Source of the DNA: Gammaproteobacteria bacterium
Lineage (GTDB): Bacteria; Pseudomonadota; Gammaproteobacteria; SZUA-229
DNA length: 64,000 nt
NCBI GenBank assembly: GCA_013041745.1
Contig: JABDRN010000026.1
Span: 4,652-68,651 of the forward strand
Reading direction: 5' to 3'
Numbering within the stretch: the first letter of the stretch is position 1; every line of letters starts with the position of its first letter. Both the position numbers and the translations under genes were made by a program. Of this stretch, positions 7,599 to 37,123 are shown one piece after another. The notes under the pieces were generated by a model. That model was given only the letters and a program-made list of their open reading frames with translations, made no database searches and was not told the origin of the DNA.

Positions 7599-8921
7599 AT
7601 GGTTGAAAGCGATCGCCGAAAATTTCTTAAAAGTTTAGCTGGACTTAGTGGTCTGGCTGCTTCTGCTGTGCCTGGTCTTACATCAGCGAAAACAGCTGCG
7701 GGCGTGCAGGTCAAAGATATCAGGCTTTCCAAGAACAAGAATTATGTTCGACTGGTGTTTGACCTGGATAAAATTGCAGATCATTCCCTTTTCGCACTAC
7801 AGGGCCCGGACAGGGTCGTGCTGGATGTAAAGAATGCCAAGATGCCGCATGGTATGGTCGATCGGGTTCAGGCAAACTCCCTGATACGAAGCATACGAAG
7901 CGGTGTCAGGAATGATAAGGACCTGCGAGTGGTGTTCGACCTCAGTGAAGAAGTGTCTCCACGCAGTTTTCTGCTGGCACCTTCAGGTAAGTCGGGGCAT
8001 CGTCTGGTCATCGACCTGCATGGTAAAAAAGATAAAACAAAAGCCGCTAAAAAGAAGAGTAAGCGTGATGTGATCATCGCTATCGATGCTGGTCATGGCG
8101 GTAAAGATCCGGGGGCCACTGGTCGCTCGGGTACGCATGAAAAGATCGTTACACTGCAGATCGCCAAACGCCTGGAAAAAGATATCAATGCTCAGCGTGG
8201 TATGAAAGCGGTACTGGTGAGAAAGAACGACCGCTATATGAGACTACGCGATCGAATACATAAAGCTCGTGACCATCATGCTGATATGATGATCTCACTG
8301 CATGCCGATTCATTCCCCGATCCACGCGCGCGCGGTTCCTCGATCTATGCACTCTCGGTTGATGGCGCCACTTCTGAAACGGCTAGAATGCTGGCGGAAA
8401 AAGAAAATGCGGCAGATATATTATTCGGTGATGTCGATCTTGCCGTCGAAGATCAGATGGTGAAAGAAGTCCTGTTTGACCTCTCTCTCACCGGAACCAT
8501 CGAATCGAGCCTCGATATCGGTAGTGAGATACTCGGGCAGTTAAAGACAGTAAACCGCGTACACAAGAAAAAGGTACAACAGGCAGGTTTTGCTGTATTG
8601 AAGGCACCAAATATTCCTTCCGTTCTGCTGGAAACGGCCTTTATATCAAATCCCAGGGAAGAGAAGAATCTACGGAGCGCTGCGCATCAGAAGAAAATAT
8701 CAAAAGCGATCACACGCGGAGTAAATAAGTATTTTTCACGCAAAGCACCGCCAGGAACCTGGCTGGCATCTTCCGAGTGTGAATACGCAGTTTGCCAAGG
8801 TGACAATGTGGCAAAGATTGCCGATAAGTATGATGTCAATGAATCAGATTTGCGTGCACGCAACAGCTTGTATGCTGATAACCTGCTAGCAGGACAGGTG
8901 ATTAAAATTCCAGTGAGTTAG
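7599..8921 (+). CDS. amiB: N-acetylmuramoyl-L-alanine amidase (AmiB/AmiC type) with Tat signal and C-terminal LysM
   Basis: 440 aa. It has a twin-arginine signal (RRKFLKSLAG), an AMIN-like N domain, an Amidase_3 core (IAIDAGHGGKDPGA, SLHADS, LLETAFISN) and a LysM-like tail. It sits in the tsaE-amiB-mutL syntenic position. Confidence 0.88.
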   Translation: MVESDRRKFLKSLAGLSGLAASAVPGLTSAKTAAGVQVKDIRLSKNKNYVRLVFDLDKIADHSLFALQGPDRVVLDVKNAKMPHGMVDRVQANSLIRSIRSGVRNDKDLRVVFDLSEEVSPRSFLLAPSGKSGHRLVIDLHGKKDKTKAAKKKSKRDVIIAIDAGHGGKDPGATGRSGTHEKIVTLQIAKRLEKDINAQRGMKAVLVRKNDRYMRLRDRIHKARDHHADMMISLHADSFPDPRARGSSIYALSVDGATSETARMLAEKENAADILFGDVDLAVEDQMVKEVLFDLSLTGTIESSLDIGSEILGQLKTVNRVHKKKVQQAGFAVLKAPNIPSVLLETAFISNPREEKNLRSAAHQKKISKAITRGVNKYFSRKAPPGTWLASSECEYAVCQGDNVAKIADKYDVNESDLRARNSLYADNLLAGQVIKIPVS

Positions 8922-8967
8922 ATATATAAAAATAATAACAACAAAACAATTCACGGAAATACTGCTA

Positions 8968-8994
8968 ATGACCCTTCTCAGGGTCATTTTTTTT
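8968..8994 (+). terminator. Rho-independent terminator after amiB
   Basis: An ATGACCC-ttctca-GGGTCAT hairpin is followed by a run of eight T. Confidence 0.6.
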
Positions 8995-9327
8995 CAATAA
9001 AGAAATATAACTGCTAAATCAATGATATAGGCGATAAATCAGTCGGTTATGCTAGCTATACTCGGCTGTCTATTAAAAAAATAATGATGCCATATCAGCA
9101 TTCCGGCAGATGTGATTGTGTGACAGATATCACAGTTTTATTCATTAATCTAAATGCTTTTCTGCTTTACCTGTTGAGTTATCAACACGCTGAAAACTAA
9201 TCTACCGGCAATAGTAAAAATGAGTGGTCATTTTTCAAGGTTAAGTGGCTGATTTCCCGAAATAGTATCAGTGTGTTTGATCTGAAATGTGATGTCCCCG
9301 GCATGATTCGATGGCGTCGTTAAAGAG

Positions 9328-9386
9328 ATGTCAATAAACCGACAAAATTGTCACTTATTGACATCAAAACTAATCAAAATAATTAT
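9328..9386 (+). promoter_or_regulatory. Candidate sigma70 promoter (TTGACA-17 nt-AATTAT) overlapped by a nested palindromic operator
   Basis: The nested palindrome ATGTCAATAA-acc-GACAA-aa-TTGTC-ac-TTATTGACAT spans 9328-9364. Its right arm contains a perfect TTGACA at 9358-9363. A -10-like AATTAT lies at 9381-9386 after 17 nt. The site is about 275 nt upstream of the first island ORF. Confidence 0.35.
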
Positions 9387-9578
9387 TGTTTTTTCTTTGA
9401 TATTCACGGACTTAGCGTCTATTTTATAAGTATTATAAAAATAAAAAATAACCATAAAAAGATCCTGAATACAAATCACTGTTGCTGCTTTATTTCACAT
9501 CATAAACAGAAACACCAAATGCGATAAAAAAGAACTTCGTTGATCGATTTATTTTCAGCGTAAACGATTCTTTGACGA

Positions 9579-10868
9579 TTGTATTTTTTAGGTGGGCTAA
9601 ATAACTTGTACCTCTACAACCACAACTTTAGAAAAGAAATTATTAATATTTTTACGATATTGATAATCTCTGCGATTGATAAAAGAGTTGTCGAAAACAT
9701 AAGCAGAAAAAAATCTGTACTTGAAGCCGGTGTCTTACTGGTATTTTTCCTGCTGATATTTTCTGTTACAGAAAAGCTGCATGCAGCAGCTGGTGATTCG
9801 ATAAGTAATACCGCAACCATCAATTATGATATTGCCGGCGTTCCAGCTTCAGATAGTGCTTCGGCTTCATTCCTCGAAGACCGCGTTATAAATTTCTCAG
9901 TCATCGAATCAGATGGCGGATCTGCAGTGCCCGTCGTTAGTGACATGGCCGATGCTGTATTGCAATTTACTGTTACCAATCTTGGTAATGCCAGTCAGGA
10001 TTTCCTGTTAACGGCTGTAAATACATCTCCCAATCCATTCGGTTCACCGGTAGACAACTTCGATCCCTTAGCGGGAACCATCCAGGTCTTTGTCGAGAGT
10101 GGTGTCACGCCAGGTTACCAGGCTGCTGAAGATACAGCTGTATTTGTCGATGAGGTGATATCAAATACTTCTCGCATCGTATATGTAGTCGCCGATATGC
10201 CGACGCAGGCAATCGATGATGTCTCGGCAATCGCCCTGATCGCTCAGGTTGCAGAAGGTGGTGCGGCTGCGCTTGAGGGTAACCCTGTGAATGCAGATGA
10301 TAATGGAAACATCAGCCCCGCCGGTATTTTCAGTAATGGCACTACGAACATGCCAGCCGGTATCGCAAACACCATTCCAGATTCGATCAGTACGATGGAG
10401 ACCGTGTTCAACGATCCTGCTGGTCTGAATGTTGAAGATGTCAGTACAGATCTGAATCAGGATGTGGCCAGTAATGGTCAGCATTCAGATGCTGGTGCAT
10501 ACCAGGTGATGTCACCGGTAAGCATCGTCAAGACGGTAACGGTACTCGATACGCTGGGCGGTACTGATCCGCACCCGGGCTCGACCTTACGTTATCAGCT
10601 CGATGTGACCGTCTCTGGCAACACCGCGGTAGATAACCTGGTGATCTCTGACGCTATTCCGGCGAATACGACATACACCGATAATTCTATCCTGTTGAAT
10701 ACCATTGCTCAGACAGACGCAGATGACGCTCCGATAGATTACTCGCAGGCTATAGACATCCTTAGCAAGCCTGTGATTTCGATCGAGGTGGATCTGAGCC
10801 AGGGAGGTACTGTATCGGTCGCACCGGGTGTAACAAACGTAATAATTTTTGAAGTAACTATTGATTGA
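9579..10868 (+). CDS. Secreted DUF11/CnaB-like repeat protein, paralogue 1 (candidate fibre subunit); function unknown
   Basis: Long ORF. A signal-peptide-like segment KKSVLEAGVLLVFFLLIFSVTEKLHA precedes AAAGDSISNTATINYD. The C-terminal module (IVKTVTVLD...LRYQLDVTVSGNTAVDNLVISDAIPANTTYT...VIIFEVTID) looks like a DUF11 conserved-repeat Ig fold. There is no in-frame ATG upstream of the signal peptide. The track start is TTG 9579, and TTG 9660 is an equally plausible start. Confidence 0.7.
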   Translation: MYFLGGLNNLYLYNHNFRKEIINIFTILIISAIDKRVVENISRKKSVLEAGVLLVFFLLIFSVTEKLHAAAGDSISNTATINYDIAGVPASDSASASFLEDRVINFSVIESDGGSAVPVVSDMADAVLQFTVTNLGNASQDFLLTAVNTSPNPFGSPVDNFDPLAGTIQVFVESGVTPGYQAAEDTAVFVDEVISNTSRIVYVVADMPTQAIDDVSAIALIAQVAEGGAAALEGNPVNADDNGNISPAGIFSNGTTNMPAGIANTIPDSISTMETVFNDPAGLNVEDVSTDLNQDVASNGQHSDAGAYQVMSPVSIVKTVTVLDTLGGTDPHPGSTLRYQLDVTVSGNTAVDNLVISDAIPANTTYTDNSILLNTIAQTDADDAPIDYSQAIDILSKPVISIEVDLSQGGTVSVAPGVTNVIIFEVTID

Positions 10869-10877
10869 GGACTAAAA

Positions 10878-11375
10878 ATGAAAAACATAAAACAAAAAAT
10901 GGCTGCAGGTTTAATGATCTTTGTGATGGCAATGATGACATCGGTGGAAGCCTATGCGGAAGGCGCTATCCGCTTTAGTAATAACGCATTCAAACAGGTC
11001 ATCTCTAAAAGTGCTGACGGCTCTACGACATTTGATTATGTCGAACCGGGCCTGGTGTTGCCTGACGATGTGATCTTATACGAGATCGTCTTTGAGAATA
11101 TCAGTGACCAGGAAGTTTCTAATATCGTGGTTAATAATCCGATCGCAAATAATTCGACATACCGTGACAGGTCTGCAACGGGTGATTCGACGACCATAAC
11201 TTTTTCAGTCGACGGGGAGAACTTTGCATCGGCAGACGCGCTGACCGTGAAAGATAAAACGGGAAAAATCTGGAAAGCAAAACCAGAAGATTACAAGGCG
11301 ATACGCTGGATATACACAAAGCCATTGAAACCCGGTGAGAAAGGCAAGGTTACATACAAGACGACTATCAAATAG
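10878..11375 (+). CDS. Small secreted single-domain DUF11-like protein; function unknown
   Basis: 165 aa. GAGGA lies 7 nt upstream of the ATG, which is 9 nt after the paralogue 1 stop. It has a signal peptide (MAAGLMIFVMAMMTSVEAYA) and one Ig-like module (VILYEIVFENISDQEVSNIVVNNPIANNSTY...KVTYKTTIK). Confidence 0.7.
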   Translation: MKNIKQKMAAGLMIFVMAMMTSVEAYAEGAIRFSNNAFKQVISKSADGSTTFDYVEPGLVLPDDVILYEIVFENISDQEVSNIVVNNPIANNSTYRDRSATGDSTTITFSVDGENFASADALTVKDKTGKIWKAKPEDYKAIRWIYTKPLKPGEKGKVTYKTTIK

Positions 11376-11468
11376 CTAGCAGGATGAGATGACCTGAAGC
11401 AATGGTCGTTAGTTCATAGCTAGGAACAGTTTATGCGAAGTTATATTCGACAATCAGGATCTTATTCT

Positions 11469-11501
11469 TGGCCCATTTCGACTGGGCCATTTGTCGTTTT
11501 T
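11469..11501 (+). terminator. Candidate Rho-independent terminator after the 165-aa ORF
   Basis: A TGGCCCA-tttcgac-TGGGCCA hairpin is followed by TTTGTCGTTTTT. Confidence 0.5.
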
Positions 11502-11573
11502 GCGCATGCCAGAAATGTGATCAGAAAATCAACAAAAACTGCGGCTGGATACAGTTCTGCACATAGCAGGGAT

Positions 11574-11689
11574 GGGCCGCTCATCTTCCACATGCGAGAC
11601 GGGCCGCCAAATGTTACCGGCCCGCCAGGTGGAACTGGACCGCCAAGACATACGTCTGGTTCAGGTCCACCGAAAACAACCGGCCCACC
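11574..11689 (+). repeat. Periodic GGN-CCR-CCR repeat array (spacing 27, 18, 18, 27, 18 nt)
   Basis: GGNCC(G/A)C(C/T) copies start at 11574, 11601, 11619, 11637, 11664 and 11682. They are in frame with the downstream ORF, giving GPL, then GPPNVT, GPPGGT, GPPRHTSGS, GPPKTT, GPPMEW. Confidence 0.8.
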
Positions 11690-11798
11690 GATGGAGTGGC
11701 TGGCCAGGAAAAAATCTCTGAAGAAATCTTCAGAAAAAAATCAGGAAAAAAACTTAAACATAGAAAAATCTCATAGAGATTTATTAGAGGAAAACATA

Positions 11799-13112
11799 AT
11801 GAAAACAAGTAAACGAAACAAGCTATTAGGCTTGGCACTTACAGGCAGTTTTAGCCTGTTCGGTGCATCAGGTGCATATGCTGCGGCAGGTGACACCATC
11901 TCGAACCAGGCGACGCTGAACTATGATGTTGGCGGTGCGGCCCAGGTGCTGATCGAGTCAGGTACCGGCGCTGGTAACTCAACCCCGGGTGCTGGTAATG
12001 GTACAACGACGGATTTCATCGAAGACCGTTTGATCAACTTTGATATCGTCCGACTTGGTGCTACTGGCGATGCTGTTCCAAGTGGAACTTTGCAGCCAGT
12101 AACGTTTAATCTGACCAATAACGGTAACGCGGCACAGGGCTTCTTGTTAAAAGGCCTGAACAATGCTGATGGTACAGCTGATCCATGGGGTGGTACTAAC
12201 GACGAGTTTGATGCGACTTTAGTACAAACATTCGTGGAAAATGGCCTCCAGGCTGGTTACCAGTCAAGCGGTGCTAACCAGGATACTGCTGCACACGTTG
12301 CTTCTCTGGCTTCAGGTGCAAACGTTGACGTTTACGTGGTATCTACTATGCCACTGAACGATACTGGCGGTAACCCGCTGGTTAACGGCAATGTGGCTGT
12401 GATGACTCTGGTTGCGCAGGCGGCGATCGATGGCAGTACTGGTATCGCAGCTGATGCGATAGTGACTGATGATAACCAGCACTTCAGCCCGGGCGGTACT
12501 GGTTTCACCAATGCTACTGCTGATGTGACTGCAGGTGTTGCTGGACCTGTGACTCCGGATGACCCGACTAATGAAGAGGTCGTCTTCGGTGAAGCTGCTG
12601 GAACACAGGATGGTACAGGTGCTGCAGACATCGTCAGTAACGGTCAGCATTCAGATGACAGTTCTTATACGATCGTTACTGCTGCATTGAATGTTACCAA
12701 GGCCTCAGTGGCGTTGTGGGATCCTGTCAACCTCGAAGTTAATCCCAAGTCGTTCCCGGGGGCCTATGTCCGTTATACCATCACCATCGAGAACACTGGT
12801 ACGGTTGCAGCGGATCTGACTACCCTGAGCGACACATTGGCAGCTGCGCTGGATCTCGATGCTGACTTTGGTGATGGAACGGCCGCCAATAATCCGACAA
12901 GTGCTGTTGGTGACTCGTTCGAAGTAACACATGTCGACAATGCTGTGACTAACTACTGTACCGGATCGACAGTTGATGCAGACGGTTGTGGATATGTCGG
13001 TAGTCCCGGTGGCGTGATCACGGTTGACATCAATGCTGTCATGGGTGCAACTGATGCCCAGTTAGCAGCAGGTGAATCACTGACTATCACATTCAATGTG
13101 GTCGTACAGTAA
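11799..13112 (+). CDS. Secreted DUF11/CnaB-like repeat protein, paralogue 2 (candidate major fibre subunit); function unknown
   Basis: ATG 11799 lies 8 nt after AGAGGA. A signal peptide MKTSKRNKLLGLALTGSFSLFGASGAYA precedes AAAGDTISNQATLNYD. It is collinear with paralogue 1 (FIEDRLINF, NNGNAAQGFLL, YVVSTMP, SNGQHSD). The C-terminal DUF11-like module reads VTKASVALWD...YVRYTITIENTG...LTITFNVVVQ. The open frame extends upstream to ATG 11433 (see findings). Confidence 0.75.
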   Translation: MKTSKRNKLLGLALTGSFSLFGASGAYAAAGDTISNQATLNYDVGGAAQVLIESGTGAGNSTPGAGNGTTTDFIEDRLINFDIVRLGATGDAVPSGTLQPVTFNLTNNGNAAQGFLLKGLNNADGTADPWGGTNDEFDATLVQTFVENGLQAGYQSSGANQDTAAHVASLASGANVDVYVVSTMPLNDTGGNPLVNGNVAVMTLVAQAAIDGSTGIAADAIVTDDNQHFSPGGTGFTNATADVTAGVAGPVTPDDPTNEEVVFGEAAGTQDGTGAADIVSNGQHSDDSSYTIVTAALNVTKASVALWDPVNLEVNPKSFPGAYVRYTITIENTGTVAADLTTLSDTLAAALDLDADFGDGTAANNPTSAVGDSFEVTHVDNAVTNYCTGSTVDADGCGYVGSPGGVITVDINAVMGATDAQLAAGESLTITFNVVVQ

Positions 13113-13134
13113 TCACGGATGACCTGGTAACGCC

Positions 13135-16100
13135 ATGTTGCAGAAATTATTACGCATAGTCTTCATCTGTACCGGCCTGTTGGCTGGTATGGGTGCTGCC
13201 GTGCGTGCTATTTTTGTCATGGCTAACCAAAGAAAAGAGATGAACTGTGTGTGTGGACATGCAGTCCATCTTGCACATCGCATTCAAAACGGGAAGCTGT
13301 TGAATGCGATGTGCAAGATGCCTCGGTCACTTTCGATAATGGTCTTATTGTCAGTGGCGCTCAATGTACAGGCTTTAACACCTCCAGGTACGGCGATCGA
13401 TAATACCGCCGTCGCCGCATTTGATTTTTCAGGTACTGGCAGTACTGCTGCCAGTAATATCGAAACGGTGGTGACTACGATCATCCAGACGCCTTCGTCT
13501 ATCTCCTTGTTGCAGTATGATTCTACAGGTACCAGTGGATTTACCCCGACCGTTGTCACACAGCATGCAACGAGCGGCCCGCCCGGAACTGGTTTTGTCG
13601 TATCGGCTGACCCTGTAGTCCCTGTCATAGGCAGTGGTGTCAATGTGCTAGATCCAGCTGATCCGCAGCCATTGAGCACTGTCAGTCTATATGCAACCGG
13701 TGAGCCGATATTTGCTCAGGTCGACGACAGGGATCAGAACCTTGATCCATCGCTAAGGGAAACTGTAGGTATCATCGTTACCAGTTCTACCGGTGATGTA
13801 GAGGAGCTTATATTGCTGGAGACAGAAGTAGACTCTGGAATCTTTATCGGATATGTGCAGTCCACATCAAGTACGGTTGCACAATATGATGGCCTGCTCA
13901 GCCTCGGTGCAGAGACTGACGTCAGTATTCAGTATACCGATCAATACGATCCTTCCGACATCAGTACCGGTACAGCTCTAGTCGATCCTTATGGCGTCGT
14001 CTTCAGTAGCCTGGATGGAACCCTGCTCGACGGCGCTACTGTCAGCATCCTGGATACTAGCGGTAACCTGGCGGCTGTATTTGGTGATGATGGAGTCAGC
14101 ACTTATGATAACCCTGTAATAACAGGTGGCAGCGTTACTGATAGTGGTGGTACTCTTTATGACTTCCCGACAGGCTCATACCGTTTCCCACGCATGAACC
14201 CGGGCAGTTATCGAATCGTGGTAGATCCACCCGCCAGTTACCAGGGGCCATCTGTAGTAAGTATCAGTGACCTGCAGACATTACCTGGTGCACCCTATGC
14301 GCTCGATTCAAATGCGTCATTTGCCGAGATATTCCTGTTGCAACCAGGACCGCCTCTCCACGTCGACGTGCCGCTCGATGCCCTGAGCTCGTATCTCGTT
14401 ATCGAGAAATCAGCATCAAAAGATACCGCTGCCATCGGTGATTTTGTACAGTATACGCTGAACCTGAGTAATACCGACACGGTCACTGCAGCGAATAATG
14501 TCGTGATCACTGATACTCTGCCAGTCGGCCTGCGTTATCAGAAATCATCTGTTCGTTACGATGGTGCACCGGGAGCTGAGCCCCAGGTCTCTGGTGATGG
14601 TCGTACGCTCAGCTTCCCGGTTTCAGCTATTGCTGCTGCTTCGTCTATACAGGTCAAATATGTCACGGAGATTACCGTCGGAACAAAACTGGGTAAGGCG
14701 GTCAACAGTGTGATCGCTCAGGACGATCGAGGCACGCAGTCTAATACTGCTGTTGCAGGGATCGCGGTGACAGAAGACCTGTTTGCAAGCAAGAGTTTTA
14801 TCGCAGGTCGCGTTATCGTTGGCGAATGTGATGATGACAGTACGTTGATTAATCCGGGACTGCCATCTGTACGTATCTTCATGGAAGATGGCCGATATGC
14901 CGCGACAGATGAACAGGGCCGCTTCCACTTCGAAGGCGTCAATCCCGGTACCCATGTCGTACAGGTGGATAAAGAGAGCATCCCGGATAATCTCGAGATT
15001 GTTGAGTGTGTAAAGAATACCCGTTATGCAGGTACGCCATACTCTCAATTCGTCGATATCCAGGGTGGTACATTATGGCGTACAGATTTCTATGTGCGTG
15101 AGAAAAAACCGATAACTGACACGGCATCATTCTTCATAAAGAGCGAACTAAATGATGAAGACATCAAGTATACAATCGAGATGTCGAATGGAGAGATTCC
15201 GGTCAAAAATTATCGTCTCATCGTCAACCTGCCGGCAGGTATCGAATTTGACCCGGGCAGTGCTGTTCTCGACGGGGTAGCTCTCGAGGAGCCGTACGTC
15301 AATGATAACGTCGTAGTCTATCGCCTTGGTGATCCTGGTAATAACTGGAAAAAGAAACTACAGTTCCGTGGCCGTATAAAGGAGCGGGCAGATGGAGATC
15401 TGATTACCTCGGTATTTACCATGATGGATACCGCTACCAAGAAAAATATACGCTCTACACCCAGTAAGAACAAGCTCGAAGTCGCACGTGCACGTAAAGA
15501 GGATAAAACAGTCGTCTACCAGGCTTATTTTGAACCGATGGGGACTGACCTGTCATATATCAGCAAAAAAGGTATCCGTGAAGCGGTCGATAACCTGGGT
15601 GAGGTAGAGATAACCCGTAACGAGATTACCGGATATTCCGATGGTCTACCGGTCAAGCAAAGGAGTGTCTGGGTGTTTGGTGACAATACGGCGATGTCGG
15701 AAAAGAGAGCAAAAGCTGTAGGTGATTACCTGATCAATGATCTTGGCCTGGATGAAGACACTGTTGTCATGAAAGGTGCTGGCGCCTCAGAACCGGTCGC
15801 ATCAAATGATACGTTAGAGGGCAGGGCACTGAATCGCCGCGCTGATCTTGTCATCACTACCAGTGAAGTTGTTGGGCCAGGCAAGGTTGAACTGGTGACA
15901 TCAGAAAGCGAAGTAAGTGAAGTGGTTCTCGAAGGACAGCCTGAGTTCAAGATCGAGAAGTTGATCGAGGCGCCACCAGTCACCGAGCAACTGGACATCA
16001 GTGCTTTTGATGAGTTCTGGATAAAAGACGCTGTACCCGGTCAGGAATGGTTGATGCCTGATCCTAACTATGCACCTATCTCTCCATCGGTAAATATCGC

Positions 16101-19100
16101 AATAAAACATAAGCCGTCTGACAATTTTGAAATGATGTTTAACGGTAAGCCGATAAACCCACTGTTTTATTTCGGCATGATCAGGAATAAATCAAATACG
16201 GTTGCCCGTAGTTACTGGCAGGGTGTTCACCTCGTTAGTGGTGTAAATCGCTTTGAATTTGTATTAAAAGATGATGATGGAAAAGTCATCAGGACATTGA
16301 CCAGGGATGTCGTATTTGCAGATATTCCGGTACGGGCTGAATTAGATGCTGAACATTCTCGCCTCATAGCTGATGGTCGGAATGTGCCGGTCATCGCATT
16401 ACGTGTATATGATAAAGACGGAAATTTCGCTCGCCCAGGATCACGCGGCAGATTTACGCTATCAGAACCCTACCTGCCACAACAACTCGTCGAAGCGTAC
16501 CAGGTGAACCGACTCTCCGGTCTCAATAATGAAGATCCAGAATATGTCGTCGGTCAGAACGGTATCGCTTATATCGTACTGGAACCCACGACTATTACCG
16601 GCAAACTGGAAATAGAAATGCCGTTCTCAGGTCGTAAGCGCTCGCGTATAGAGACATGGATGCAACCGGAGGTGAGGGACTGGATCATGGTAGGCCTTGC
16701 TGAAGGTACTGCAGGTTACAATGCTGTATCAGGTAACACTGAAGCACTCGGTGCAGCTGATATCAATGATGAGTTCTATAGTGAAGGTAAAGTTGCGTTT
16801 TATGCCAAAGGTAAGGTGAAGGGTGAGTGGCTGTTAACGACATCATATGATACCTCGAAGAACACAGATGATACTGATAACCGTGTCAATCAGATGATCG
16901 ATCCGAACACTTATTACACTATCTATGGTGATAACTCTACTCAGCGTTATGATGCTTCGAGCGCAGACAAACTATATATAAAGATGGAGCGTGAACAATT
17001 CTATGCTATGTATGGTGACATGAACACAGGTCTGAGTATCACCGAATTATCCAAGTTCCAGCGTAATATGACCGGTGTCAAATCAGAGTTTGATAGTGGC
17101 AAGTTTGCCTATACGGCATTTGCAGCAGAAAATAAAAATAATTTCATCAAGGATGAGATCCAAGGTGAAGGGATATCCGGCCTGTACCGGTTGAGCGGAA
17201 ACGATATCGTCATCAATAGCGATAATATCGTGATAGAAACACGTGACCGTTTCCGCAGCGAGATCATCATAAAATCTGAAACCATGCGCCGTTACCTGGA
17301 TTACAGTATCGATTATTCTGACGGTACGATCTTCTTCCGGCGCCCTATCCCCAGTCGCGATGAAAGTTTCAATCCGATATTCATCGTTGCTGACTATGAA
17401 GTTGAAGCACCGGTCGACGGTGATATAACTGCTGGTGGCCGCGCTGCAGCCAGGTTCAATGACGGCCAGATCGAAGTCGGTGCCACAGTCGTACATGATG
17501 CAACCTATCTGAATGAAGGCGATCTGGTAGGTGCTGATGCCCGTATCGAGATCAATAGCACGACAGAAGCCAGGTTCGAAGCGGCTGTTTCAGATGTTAC
17601 GTCTGGTACTCAGGACCTTGACGGTTCAGCTTATAGCGCCGAGATAGTGCATGGTGGAGATAACCTGAAAGTCAGGGTATACGCGAAACAGCAGGATGAA
17701 GACTTCGGCCTTGGCCAGCAATCGATCAGCCAGTCTGGTACGCGTAAATATGGTGCAGATGCGAATTACCAGGTCAATCGATCGATCGTTCTGGATGGTA
17801 CGGTCTATCACGAAGACAACCTGGTCACAGGCGGAAAACGTGATGTTGCCGAAGCAAATGTTATATATAGTAAACGTGATTACTCGTTAAATGCCGGTGC
17901 AGTTATAGCCCGTGACAGGTTTGTTCTCGGCGAGACTAATGCTTCTAACCTGTTGACCTTTGGTGCCAGTAAAAACTTCCTGCAGGATACAGTTAAGCTG
18001 CGTGCTAATGCAGAGGTGGCGGTCGACTCTGCGGATTCAAATATTGATTATCCATCTCGCTTCATACTGGGTGCTGACTATTTTATAACATCAAAAGTGA
18101 ACCTGTTTGCGGAGAATGAATGGACCGTCGGTCGCGATCAGGACACCCAGATGGCCCGTGCTGGTGTACGTGCGACACCCTGGACCAATGCGCAGATCAA
18201 TACGGCGGTTAACCAGGAAACCAATGAAAGTGGTATCCGCTCGTTTGCAACTCTTGGCCTGACTCAGACATTCCCGATCAACAAGCGCTGGAGTGGTGAT
18301 GTTACCTTCGACCATGCGAAGACACTGCGTACACCAGGCGTCGTGCCGTTCTATGATAATGTTCCGATTGCTCAGGGTACGGAGAATAATGACTTCACCG
18401 CTATATCCGTGGGTACGACTTACAATGCTGCCAGCTATACACTGAATAACCGCGTCGAATTACGCGCCGCCGACCTCGAAGATAAATTAGGTATGATCGT
18501 TAACTGGGAGAGGAACCTGAAAGGCGGTGTCGGTTATTCTGCAACGACGAAACTGTTCAGGACCGATCGAACAGATAATAGCGAGTTACTCGACGGTGAT
18601 ATACGTTTCTCTGTTGCATACCGCCCGCTGCAGTCACGCTGGATCACTCTGAACCGTCTCGATTTCAAATTTGATTCCAGTACCGATATCCTGGGGATTA
18701 AAACACGGCAACGTAAACTTATCGAAAACCTGACGTCGAACTACCTGATCGATAACTGGAACCAGGTCTCATTTAATTTTGGTCTGAAGTATGTCGTCGA
18801 TACATTCGATAAAGCTGAGTACAGTGGTATAACGAATCTGCTTGGTACCGAGTACCGTCACGATCTAAGTGATCGTTTCGATGTCGGTGTGCATGCGCAT
18901 ACTCACTATACAACAAACTCATCTACCATGAAATATTCAACAGGCCTGTCATTCGGCTGGAACATGTCACGCAATATATGGCTGAGTATCGGCTATAATT
19001 TCGACGGTTTCGAGGATAGAGATTTTTCAGCGGCAGGTTACACCGCGACTGGTCCGTACATCCGGTTCCGTATGAAGTTCGATCAGGATACTGCTGATGA

Positions 19101-19122
19101 AGTTCAGGATATGTTGAATTAA
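13135..19122 (+). CDS. Giant (up to 1995 aa) multidomain outer-membrane protein: Ig-like/DUF11 modules, SdrD-B-like module, internal OmpA-C-like domain, very large C-terminal beta-barrel-like region; function unknown
   Basis: Uninterrupted ORF. A DUF11-like module lies around aa 418-546 (LVIEKSASKDTAAIGDFVQYTLNLSNT...VITDTLPVGLRY). An SdrD-B/CarboxypepD_reg-like module lies around aa 553-615 (GRVIVGEC...DEQGRFHFEGVNPGTHVV). An OmpA-like segment lies around aa 795-908 (ITGYSDGLP...SEKRAKAVGDYL...GAGASEPVASNDTLEGRALNRRADLVI). From about aa 1180 to 1980 the sequence has alternating-residue beta-strand character and ends in YIRFRMKF. The start is uncertain. ATG 13309 or 13318 would give the better signal peptide M(CKM)PRSLSIMVLLSVALNVQA. 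Confidence 0.75.
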   Translation: MLQKLLRIVFICTGLLAGMGAAVRAIFVMANQRKEMNCVCGHAVHLAHRIQNGKLLNAMCKMPRSLSIMVLLSVALNVQALTPPGTAIDNTAVAAFDFSGTGSTAASNIETVVTTIIQTPSSISLLQYDSTGTSGFTPTVVTQHATSGPPGTGFVVSADPVVPVIGSGVNVLDPADPQPLSTVSLYATGEPIFAQVDDRDQNLDPSLRETVGIIVTSSTGDVEELILLETEVDSGIFIGYVQSTSSTVAQYDGLLSLGAETDVSIQYTDQYDPSDISTGTALVDPYGVVFSSLDGTLLDGATVSILDTSGNLAAVFGDDGVSTYDNPVITGGSVTDSGGTLYDFPTGSYRFPRMNPGSYRIVVDPPASYQGPSVVSISDLQTLPGAPYALDSNASFAEIFLLQPGPPLHVDVPLDALSSYLVIEKSASKDTAAIGDFVQYTLNLSNTDTVTAANNVVITDTLPVGLRYQKSSVRYDGAPGAEPQVSGDGRTLSFPVSAIAAASSIQVKYVTEITVGTKLGKAVNSVIAQDDRGTQSNTAVAGIAVTEDLFASKSFIAGRVIVGECDDDSTLINPGLPSVRIFMEDGRYAATDEQGRFHFEGVNPGTHVVQVDKESIPDNLEIVECVKNTRYAGTPYSQFVDIQGGTLWRTDFYVREKKPITDTASFFIKSELNDEDIKYTIEMSNGEIPVKNYRLIVNLPAGIEFDPGSAVLDGVALEEPYVNDNVVVYRLGDPGNNWKKKLQFRGRIKERADGDLITSVFTMMDTATKKNIRSTPSKNKLEVARARKEDKTVVYQAYFEPMGTDLSYISKKGIREAVDNLGEVEITRNEITGYSDGLPVKQRSVWVFGDNTAMSEKRAKAVGDYLINDLGLDEDTVVMKGAGASEPVASNDTLEGRALNRRADLVITTSEVVGPGKVELVTSESEVSEVVLEGQPEFKIEKLIEAPPVTEQLDISAFDEFWIKDAVPGQEWLMPDPNYAPISPSVNIAIKHKPSDNFEMMFNGKPINPLFYFGMIRNKSNTVARSYWQGVHLVSGVNRFEFVLKDDDGKVIRTLTRDVVFADIPVRAELDAEHSRLIADGRNVPVIALRVYDKDGNFARPGSRGRFTLSEPYLPQQLVEAYQVNRLSGLNNEDPEYVVGQNGIAYIVLEPTTITGKLEIEMPFSGRKRSRIETWMQPEVRDWIMVGLAEGTAGYNAVSGNTEALGAADINDEFYSEGKVAFYAKGKVKGEWLLTTSYDTSKNTDDTDNRVNQMIDPNTYYTIYGDNSTQRYDASSADKLYIKMEREQFYAMYGDMNTGLSITELSKFQRNMTGVKSEFDSGKFAYTAFAAENKNNFIKDEIQGEGISGLYRLSGNDIVINSDNIVIETRDRFRSEIIIKSETMRRYLDYSIDYSDGTIFFRRPIPSRDESFNPIFIVADYEVEAPVDGDITAGGRAAARFNDGQIEVGATVVHDATYLNEGDLVGADARIEINSTTEARFEAAVSDVTSGTQDLDGSAYSAEIVHGGDNLKVRVYAKQQDEDFGLGQQSISQSGTRKYGADANYQVNRSIVLDGTVYHEDNLVTGGKRDVAEANVIYSKRDYSLNAGAVIARDRFVLGETNASNLLTFGASKNFLQDTVKLRANAEVAVDSADSNIDYPSRFILGADYFITSKVNLFAENEWTVGRDQDTQMARAGVRATPWTNAQINTAVNQETNESGIRSFATLGLTQTFPINKRWSGDVTFDHAKTLRTPGVVPFYDNVPIAQGTENNDFTAISVGTTYNAASYTLNNRVELRAADLEDKLGMIVNWERNLKGGVGYSATTKLFRTDRTDNSELLDGDIRFSVAYRPLQSRWITLNRLDFKFDSSTDILGIKTRQRKLIENLTSNYLIDNWNQVSFNFGLKYVVDTFDKAEYSGITNLLGTEYRHDLSDRFDVGVHAHTHYTTNSSTMKYSTGLSFGWNMSRNIWLSIGYNFDGFEDRDFSAAGYTATGPYIRFRMKFDQDTADEVQDMLN
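13267..13320 (+). promoter_or_regulatory. Perfect 21-bp inverted repeat (12-nt loop) covering candidate start codons of the giant ORF
   Basis: CATCTTGCACATCGCATTCAA (13267-13287) is the exact reverse complement of TTGAATGCGATGTGCAAGATG (13300-13320). The loop AACGGGAAGCTG contains a GGGAAG Shine-Dalgarno-like element. The 3' arm contains ATG 13309 and ATG 13318. Confidence 0.8.
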
Positions 19123-37036: not shown

Positions 37037-37123
37037 TGGTGCCGAGAAGAGGACTTGAACCTCCACGAGCCAAAGCTCACTAGCACCTGAAGCTAGCGCG
37101 TCTACCAATTCCGCCACCTCGGC
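37037..37123 (-). tRNA. tRNA-Leu (anticodon CAG)
   Basis: The reverse complement GCCGAGGTGGCGGAATTGGTAGACGCGCTAGCTTCAGGTGCTAGT...GGAGGTTCAAGTCCTCTTCTCGGCACCA folds as a class II cloverleaf with a long variable arm. The anticodon loop is TTCAGGT. It is near-identical in the 5' half to E. coli tRNA-Leu(CAG), and CCA is encoded. Confidence 0.95.

Follow-up and report, generated by a model that had tools for sequence, protein, structure and literature searches.

The 64-kb window analysed here (the whole stretch of 64,000 nucleotides from contig JABDRN010000026.1) is closest to uncultured Thiotrichaceae and to 'Gammaproteobacteria bacterium' metagenome-assembled genomes (MAGs) from marine and vent samples. 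It carries a locus of four open reading frames (ORFs), here called A, B, C and D, whose products appear to share out the parts of a divided protein domain. Judging from the sequences, the last domain of A, of B and of C is DUF11-like, of the immunoglobulin-like (Ig-like) type, and without its final strand, the G strand; a short tag at the mature N-terminus of A, C and D is homologous to that strand. We give roughly an even chance to the reading that the locus is a self-contained fibre or adhesin module, built by donor-strand complementation of a split DUF11/CLIPPER domain into a chain B-A-C-D that D would anchor. A preliminary description of the same DNA had singled out the four co-directional ORFs with signal-peptide-like N-termini as a candidate surface-fibre system; all four were found again on the + strand at the same coordinates (Table 1).

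The loss of the G strand is visible in profile-profile alignments. The C-terminal domains of A, B and C match the complete DUF11 profile of D with 97% probability, and each alignment ends with the F strand, at template position 99 of 136, and thus leaves no G strand. The DUF11/CnaB-like module that had earlier been proposed to close A and C is thus present, except for this strand. B, previously read as one such module on its own, does turn out to duplicate the C-terminal module of A and C as a separate protein (hhalign, 96-97% probability). By Pfam, DUF11 remains sub-threshold in the three domains (17-20 bits; cut-off 24.6), and the NCBIfam model TIGR01451 is borderline, with 24.8, 22.5 and 23.8 bits for A, B and C against a cut-off of 24. 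A scan of the representative genomes of GTDB found at least 589 related loci, 80 of which were retrieved; looking up distant homologues supplied another two. All A, B and C proteins of these 82 loci, as well as the products of a fifth gene, U, described below, end in an identical amphipathic strand, '...TIxFxVTI[DNQK]-stop'. The corresponding ends in the window are ...NVIIFEVTID in A, ...TTIK in B and ...SLTITFNVVVQ in C.

In A, C and D the predicted cleavage site is directly followed by the tag, whose consensus is 'AGTxIxNTAxxxYxxxGxxxxxSN'. Its 34 residues are the sole region common to the N-terminus of D and to A or C (hhalign probability 92-95%, 34 columns), and for this reason we regard it as a portable module rather than as part of a common first domain. 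Once the tag is appended to an acceptor, as we call the G-strand-less domains, the hhalign alignment reaches positions 115-116 and the score rises by 5-8 units; with the tag reversed, neither the extension nor the gain in score is seen. In these alignments the Asn of the tag maps to the Asn of 'AVN' in D, the Lys of the acceptor to 'IEK' and its Asp to 'DTLP'. Lys425 and Asn524 of the DUF11 domain of D align in turn with the isopeptide-forming Lys and Asn of the CLIPPER structure 9IFR, so that through this domain the Lys and Asn positions correspond to Lys715 and Asn806 of 9IFR, in which an intramolecular isopeptide bond was demonstrated experimentally (PMC12617251).

The conservation of these residues across the family points to which protein completes which. 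In the acceptor of A the Lys is found in 49 of 49 members and the Asp in 48, and in that of C both residues occur in all members. The tag Asn is conserved in 55 of 56 C proteins, in all 65 D proteins and in about 40 of the 49 A proteins. A complete Lys-Asp-Asn triad within a single domain exists only in the internal domain of D (K425, DTLP, N524), and K425 is the sole conserved Lys in the first 1000 residues of this protein. Since K425 is already paired with N524, the Asn of the D tag needs a Lys from another protein. The Lys of A is invariant even in loci whose A tag has lost its Asn, which speaks against insertion of the A tag into its own acceptor. This loss was seen in 1 of 11 loci with U versus 7 of 37 without it, which is the expected direction in numbers too small for a claim. 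The domain of B has no Lys, and 'NP' takes the place of 'D.P', so that the Asp is absent too. Ahead of its own A strand B has one more N-terminal strand that is conserved, GxIxLxSxA; this extra strand contains no Asn and is not homologous to the tag. Given that the D tag Asn is without a partner in D and that the A Lys is kept regardless of the A tag, the simplest pairing would bring the D tag to C, the C tag to A and the A tag to B. A and C had formerly been cast as major and minor polymerising subunits. In that form the idea finds no support: there are two Lys/Asp acceptors and two invariant Asn donors, a pattern that a defined chain D<-C<-A explains better than polymers of A alone or C alone. 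Should one of the subunits polymerise, B, which is small and non-covalent, would be as good a candidate.

The four genes travel together. Among the 53 informative loci, i.e., those with a complete D and at least 3.6 kb of upstream sequence, the order [A-like, 330-440 aa]-[B, ~165 aa]-[C-like, 360-440 aa]-[D] is kept in 52; an automatic rule recovered the full set in 49 of the 53, and inspection of three ORF-calling artefacts brought in the others. The exception, locus L047 (CP070719.1, 'bacterium isolate bin47'), encodes a full-length D homologue of 2035 aa with no A, B or C gene upstream. The cassette occurs in Thiotrichaceae, Woeseiaceae, Steroidobacteraceae, Burkholderiales, Desulfuromonadales/Geobacter, Desulfatitalea, Nitrospirota and Lentisphaeria. 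Since the flanking genes vary between these lineages, it is self-contained, and no additional conserved gene was detected among the 80 related loci. The strict order and the co-occurrence of the four genes across several phyla argue for a physical interaction of their products.

About a quarter of the loci carry the gene U upstream of A, which is found in many non-Thiotrichaceae loci and absent from the window (e.g., 5259-8042 in L001 and 3709-6807 in L002; also L015, L017, L022, L023, L028, L029, L042, L052, L060 and L074). It codes for a DUF11-positive protein of 800-1400 aa with a variable N-terminal region, no donor tag and, at its end, a G-strand-less acceptor with LLK and TDPIP motifs. 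An acceptor domain without a tag is what would be expected of a tip element, and U looks like an exchangeable tip adhesin.

The paralogy of A and C noted in the preliminary description is clear. BLASTP aligns the two proteins with 33% identity over 331 aa (E=2e-36), all the shared motifs quoted earlier are visible in the alignment, and the family profiles align end to end (hhalign, E=3e-64). A consists of a signal peptide, the N-terminal tag, two beta domains outside Pfam and the C-terminal G-strand-less DUF11-like acceptor; neither Pfam nor NCBIfam recognised anything in the N-terminal two-thirds of A and C. An AlphaFold2 (AF2) model of C is all-beta, with tandem Ig-like domains and a predicted local distance difference test score (pLDDT) of 88. 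The best 50 Foldseek matches of this model are generic tandem-Ig proteins only (integrin legs, SafDAA, CsuE, AgI/II), with template modelling (TM) scores of at most 0.32. A conserved Cys387/Cys397 pair lies within the C acceptor domain. As for B, it could act as a cap, as a non-covalently polymerising subunit or as a placeholder.

All four proteins seem to be exported. Read by eye, their signal-peptide-like N-termini contain AXA-type sites, with predicted cleavage between LHA and AAGD (A), AYA and EGA (B), AYA and AAGD (C), and VQA and LTPPGT (D). Conserved Cys pairs in C and D and the outer-membrane-type barrel of D point in the same direction. The ORF of D begins 23 nt past the stop of C and includes about 80 residues (13135-13374) upstream of the predicted cleavage; every related locus likewise has 50-100 residues in front of the conserved PPGT tag. 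Alternative starts at Met59 (13309) and Met62 (13318) lie just before the signal-peptide-like h-region. Residues 1-80 of D could thus be an extended signal peptide, as in autotransporters and two-partner secretion proteins, or reflect a consistently miscalled start.

D is a giant protein in which several modules follow one another (Table 1). Of the modules proposed earlier, DUF11 and OmpA score above threshold and SdrD_B does not (22 bits versus 29.7). DUF11 (PF01345) reaches 38.0 bits against a cut-off of 24.6 at residues 421-541, TIGR01451 reaches 64.3 bits against 24, and there is a weak match at the cut-off (30 bits) to TIGR04226 (RrgB_K2N_iso_D2). OmpA_C (PF00691) scores 40.7 bits versus 27.2 at residues 798-901, and the family profile matches OmpA-like domains of the PDB with E-values down to 2e-18. 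The D...NRR residues of OmpA_C are peptidoglycan-contact motifs. What had been taken for a possible invasin-type Ig module turned out to be two Ig-like domains, for which the domain-level Foldseek matches are the C-terminal Ig domains of glycoside hydrolase family 2 (GH2) and titin Ig domains.

The beta-rich C-terminus described earlier corresponds, in an AF2 model of residues 921-1995 built from a 41-sequence alignment, to a predicted barrel of about 32 hairpin-connected strands (Table 1), the final strand of which (GPYIRFRMKF) is followed by a short helix. Ahead of it lies the stretch 1181-1280 (16675-16974), and a small beta domain separates the two in the model. This stretch is among the most conserved of the C-terminal half, with the consensus RDWILVGLAEGT..GYN...KGEWLLT, and the invariant W1175, W1183, G1187 and K1225-G1226 cluster in it or just before it; it may be a plug, latch or oligomerisation element of the barrel. 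The family-defining C-terminal module is represented by 3363 clusters at 50% identity with E<=1e-3 (1309 with E<=1e-30), and with few exceptions makes up the C-terminal ~810 residues of its proteins, which are 1600-2700 aa long. In public databases these relatives of D are named only 'OmpA family protein', 'DUF11 domain-containing protein' or 'TIGR01451 repeat protein'. Residues 920-1995 gave no match in Pfam at E<=1 or in NCBIfam, nor did the family profile recognise this region among PDB sequences. For the locus as a whole, PDB sequence searches with single sequences and with the profile returned the OmpA domain only, besides chance-level matches to AbpX and 9IFR. Foldseek of the model against the PDB found generic large barrels only, all with TM scores of at most 0.29: SprA (36 strands), Deinococcus SlpA (30), LptD, TonB-dependent transporters, MtrB and FimD.

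Put together, these elements suggest the following assembly. After export by Sec, the D tag would enter the acceptor of C, the C tag that of A and the A tag that of B. The D-C and C-A joints would then lock themselves by a spontaneous Lys-Asn isopeptide bond, in the manner of SpyTag/SpyCatcher; that bonds form at these two joints is predicted from the conserved residues. The A-B joint would be non-covalent because B has no Lys, which fits the relaxed conservation of the A-tag Asn. The product would be the chain B-A-C-D, with the large tag-less U possibly occupying the tip in other lineages. D would hold this chain by its OmpA-like domain on the peptidoglycan and by its ~32-strand barrel in the outer membrane. 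In the least certain step, the barrel would double as the conduit of the Ig chain to the surface, which would make D an usher, a terminator and an anchor at once. The likely role would be adhesion, or attachment of sediment and vent bacteria to other cells or to minerals. We infer the stoichiometry of the assembly and its exposure at the surface. Exposure is favoured because the Ig domains of the chain add up to a great length, U resembles an adhesin, isopeptide domains are usually found at cell surfaces, and the barrel is large. The more ambitious proposal, a new class of Gram-negative surface fibre whose split-CLIPPER halves click together and become isopeptide-locked free of chaperone and sortase, with D as conduit, terminator and peptidoglycan anchor, is made tentatively, and we lean somewhat against it.

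Several points weigh against this assembly. The pairing and the order B-A-C-D were deduced solely from the bookkeeping of conserved residues. In a Pfam chimera test, in which an acceptor domain, a linker and a tag were joined, the scores rose only modestly, and the family-profile hhalign comparison with reversed-tag controls was used in its place. The scheme assigns no partner to the conserved N-terminal strand of B, and, with no chaperone in the locus, it leaves unexplained what would block premature self-assembly in the periplasm. The model of the C-terminal half of D is of moderate confidence (mean pLDDT 71.6), and its residues 1181-1280 are poorly modelled (pLDDT 29-41) despite their conservation. 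In the AF2 monomer of C the N-terminal segment is placed confidently (pLDDT ~86), which leaves room for self-insertion. Topology is a further difficulty: both the tag of D and its Ig stalk precede the OmpA domain, which is periplasmic, and the chain must therefore either pass through the barrel of D itself or stay in the periplasm.

If it stays there, D would be a tether between the outer membrane and the peptidoglycan, akin to OmpA, OprF or the SlpA/OmpM class, with a barrel that is merely a membrane anchor or pore and an Ig arm that covalently recruits C, A and B as a scaffold. This arrangement, which we place on the unlikely side, agrees with the position of the tag, the stalk and the DUF11 domain before OmpA_C, a region that is periplasmic in every characterised relative, and with the fact that the locus encodes no separate translocon. 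It also gains from the presence of Deinococcus SlpA, a 30-strand barrel that ties the outer membrane to the cell wall, among the best Foldseek matches, and from the DUF11 protein OmcB of Chlamydia, which is largely a structural protein beneath the outer membrane. The length of the chain is difficult to reconcile with it: at an estimated 4 nm or so per Ig domain, about six Ig-size domains in the D arm, three in C, three in A and one in B would span several times the width of the periplasm. Moreover, a barrel of ~32 strands far exceeds the needs of a mere anchor, the tag-less U proteins of 800-1400 aa with their variable N-termini resemble tip adhesins, and isopeptide-stabilised CLIPPER and Cna domains usually occur in surface adhesins that bear mechanical load (PMC12617251).

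Another alternative does without any assembly between subunits. Each N-terminal strand might complete the C-terminal domain of its own chain to give stapled, very stable monomers, the four genes then coding for co-regulated exported Ig-domain proteins and a large porin-like protein of the OmpA family. The confident placement of the N-terminal segment in the C monomer would be explained, intramolecular isopeptide bonds are the norm for CLIPPER domains, and A and C each hold one Asn strand and one Lys/Asp domain, which makes self-pairing stoichiometrically possible. We nevertheless find such monomers clearly improbable: D has neither a free acceptor domain nor a conserved Lys for its fully conserved tag Asn, B and U have acceptor domains and no tag, the Lys of A is invariant even where the A tag is without Asn, the tag is portable and joined to non-homologous downstream domains, and gene order and co-occurrence are strict across phyla. 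Scarcely credible, in our view, is the proposal that D belongs to a known class of transporters or secretion pores (TonB-dependent Oar-like, LptD-like or SprA-like) and that A, B and C are its substrates or accessory, lipoprotein-like partners. D does contain a CarboxypepD_reg domain, which precedes the barrel in Oar/SusC-type receptors, and SprA, LptD and TonB-dependent transporters are among its top Foldseek matches. Those matches have TM scores that never exceed 0.29; Pfam and NCBIfam yield no Plug, TonB_dep_Rec, LptD or usher domain even at E<=1, the profile search of PDB sequences finds the OmpA domain only, no partner genes of the type IX secretion system (T9SS), Lpt or TonB lie nearby, and there is no lipobox, the cleavage sites preceding Ala, Glu or Leu and not Cys.

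The preliminary description had spoken of an undescribed fibre system on a peptidoglycan-binding outer-membrane platform. Homology and fold searches assign A, B, C and the barrel of D to none of the characterised families of pili or secretion systems, 52 of the 53 informative loci have the four genes together and in sequence, and their products bear the marks of export; since none of these results goes against it, that proposal stands, and the split DUF11 domain now offers a concrete mechanism for it. Its statement that the locus encodes no chaperone, usher, sortase, secretin or ATPase holds as well. A literature search, of incomplete coverage and hence no proof of absence, turned up no account of the cassette or of any Gram-negative assembly based on a split CLIPPER domain.

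Table 1. Coordinates of the genes, domains and non-coding features of the A-D locus in the window
Feature	Position	Strand	Remarks
Sigma-70-like promoter candidates, two overlapping	9358..9425	+	consensus matches only; fewer than in shuffled sequence, weak
Gene A	9579..10868	+	429 aa from the first possible start, TTG 9579; TTG 9660 also possible
A tag	9786..9863	+	mature N-terminus AAGDSISNTATINYDIAGVPASDSAS; Asn77 codon 9807-9809
A acceptor domain	10494..10868	+	aa 306-429; Lys318 (10530-10532), Asp358 (10650-10652); stops at the F strand
Gene B	10878..11375	+	165 aa; signal peptide, extra N-terminal strand, one G-strand-less DUF11-like domain
Terminator-/attenuator-like hairpin and T-run	11469..11489	+	between B and C; compensatory changes in close relatives
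GC-rich conserved non-coding block, ~135 nt	11575..11710	+	upstream of C; five GGnCCnCC repeats, nested hairpins
Gene C	11799..13112	+	437 aa; A paralogue; directly upstream of D in all loci
C tag	11883..11963	+	AAGDTISNQATLNYDVGGAAQVLIESG; Asn36 codon 11904-11906
C acceptor domain	12666..13112	+	aa 290-437; Lys301 (12699-12701), Asp345 (12831-12833)
Gene D	13135..19122	+	1995 aa; giant presumed anchor and putative translocon
D tag	13375..13464	+	LTPPGTAIDNTAVAAFDFSGTGSTAASNIE; Asn90 codon 13402-13404
DUF11/CLIPPER, complete	14395..14757	+	aa 421-541; own Lys425, Asp (ITDTLP), Asn524
CarboxypepD_reg-like core	14875..14976	+	aa 581-614 matched; 35.9 bits vs 32.3
OmpA_C-like peptidoglycan-binding domain	15526..15855	+	aa 798-907; GYSD and NRR motifs present
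Two Ig-like beta-sandwich domains	16042..16674	+	aa ~970-1180; AF2 pLDDT 75-91
Family-defining C-terminal module	16672..19122	+	aa 1180-1995
Predicted giant beta-barrel	17374..19074	+	aa 1414-1980; ~32 long antiparallel strands (AF2, DSSP; pLDDT mostly 70-90)

The locus lies between housekeeping genes, with nnr, tsaE and amiB upstream and LigT/thpR, mutL and miaA downstream. A terminator hairpin of amiB (8967-8988) is followed by a 670-bp AT-rich non-coding spacer (8989-9660) up to A, with a GC content of about 0.41 (0.41 in 8001-10000) compared to 0.48-0.50 around it. This AT-richness, together with the short A-rich tandem repeats and promoter-like sites of the spacer, suggests a regulated, possibly horizontally inserted, cassette boundary. 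The spacer between B and C (11376-11798, 423 nt) is conserved at the DNA level in close relatives, which accounts for the upstream extension of C to 11433 in the ORF list; 11799 is the conserved start. The GC-rich block of this spacer, for which Rfam gave no match, is possibly a structured leader, and the spacer may set the ratio of expression of A and B to that of C and D. A tRNA-Leu(CAG) on the - strand (37037-37123) is the sole RNA gene found in the window.

If the proposed assembly is true, diderm bacteria would have a further route to surface fibres that involves no homologue of a chaperone, usher, sortase, ATPase or secretin, and the D-C and C-A joints would be the first natural covalent, self-ligating pilus joints of Gram-negative bacteria. 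The examples of such chemistry up to now are SpyTag/SpyCatcher, which was engineered, the archaeal threads and a single matrix protein of a clostridium. The assembly would also give a function to the giant 'OmpA family / DUF11' proteins (3363 clusters, at least 589 species in the GTDB representatives) and define a new, very large class of outer-membrane barrel. The D family is common in Woeseiaceae, Thiotrichaceae, Steroidobacteraceae, Desulfuromonadales/Geobacter and Nitrospirota, which matter in the biogeochemistry of sediments and the subsurface, and the system would then be present in at least several hundred species from sediments, vents and groundwater. Orthogonal pairs of tag and acceptor (D tag to C, C tag to A) are possible new parts for protein ligation.

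Among the known systems, the chaperone-usher pili (type 1/P: FimA-H, FimC, FimD) resemble the proposed assembly in several respects. Their Ig subunits lack the C-terminal G strand, which the N-terminal extension of the next, cell-proximal subunit supplies; the tip has a groove and no donor strand, as U here; the last element only donates and cannot accept, D corresponding to PapH; an outer-membrane barrel stands at the base; and a hairpin follows an early subunit gene. They differ in that the barrel of D would have ~32 strands instead of 24 and is fused to the terminator/anchor and to a peptidoglycan-binding OmpA domain, that the subunit fold is DUF11/CLIPPER (CnaA-like), and that two joints are predicted to be covalent. 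The combination of a G-strand-less Ig domain with an N-terminal donor is hence shared by topological analogy, in a different Ig family, and A-D exhibit no sequence homology to fimbrial pilin families. No PapD-like chaperone (PF00345/PF02753) was matched by Pfam or NCBIfam in A-D. An usher (PF00577) was rejected, as residues 920-1995 of D have no Pfam match to it and FimD ranks 47th in Foldseek with a TM score of 0.14.

The chemistry is closest to SpyTag/SpyCatcher and to CLIPPER domains, in which the first strand carries the Lys, the last strand carries the Asn/Asp, and an acidic residue is the catalyst; removal of the last strand leaves a 'catcher', and the strand alone is a spontaneously ligating 'tag'. 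That split was engineered, whereas the one described here is apparently natural, spread over three or four genes and conserved across phyla. The only solved CLIPPER/DUF11 domain, 9IFR, belongs to an Acinetobacter silvestris protein deposited as 'OmpA-like domain-containing protein', and DUF11 stalks with OmpA-like anchors consequently recur in Gram-negative adhesins outside the D family.

Donor-strand assembly together with an intermolecular isopeptide bond has been reported for archaeal threads (Saci_0406; PMC9715654) and for BsaA of C. perfringens (10.1101/2024.11.04.621531). Threads and the TasA superfamily (BsaA, AbpA/AbpX) also place the donor strand at the extreme mature N-terminus and are complemented without a chaperone. 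Unlike the present locus, they are jelly-roll/TasA homopolymers from archaea or monoderm bacteria, and a dedicated signal peptidase of the SipW type often accompanies them. The host of the cassette is a diderm, the subunit fold is DUF11, and a defined chain of different subunits held by an outer-membrane anchor is what the pattern suggests. AbpX is the sole link to the TasA superfamily, at chance level (E=0.05-0.07 over ~70 residues), no TasA-like chain occurs among the best 50 Foldseek matches of the C model, and the locus contains no signal peptidase gene. Sortase pili (SpaA/RrgB) are likewise covalent, Lys-linked chains of Ig-like pilins of the Cna type, but the linkage here is predicted to be autocatalytic within a complemented domain and not a transpeptidation of a C-terminal Thr; A, B and C have no LPXTG or pilin motif, and the locus has no sortase.

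With SlpA, OmpA and OprF, D shares a peptidoglycan-binding module and an outer-membrane barrel in one polypeptide (TM score to SlpA 0.26-0.29). The domain order of OmpA is reversed in D, which has no S-layer homology (SLH) domain or coiled coil. D is also extended at its N-terminus by an Ig arm of 700 residues that carries a donor tag, and it is accompanied by three dedicated partner genes. Other classes are more distant. Bacteroidia type V pili are made from lipoprotein precursors, with proteolytic loss of an N-terminal strand and C-terminal donor strands; here the sites are of the AXA type and followed by A, E or L instead of a lipobox Cys, and the donor-like element is N-terminal. Type V secretion was discarded because PF03797 and PF11924 do not match, the barrel would have ~32 strands versus 12-16, and OmpA and two Ig domains separate the stalk from the barrel, with no passenger adjoining it. 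TonB-dependent, Oar-like proteins share only CarboxypepD_reg, with no Plug (PF07715) or TonB_dep_Rec (PF00593) and TM scores of 0.13-0.16. SprA of the T9SS, the best Foldseek match, aligns with a query-based TM score (TMq) of 0.20 and 8% identity and has no sequence match; no T9SS gene is found among the immediate neighbours of the locus, the rest of the window not having been scanned. The cassette thus follows the logic of donor-strand-complemented fibres, with a machinery that matches none of the known classes.

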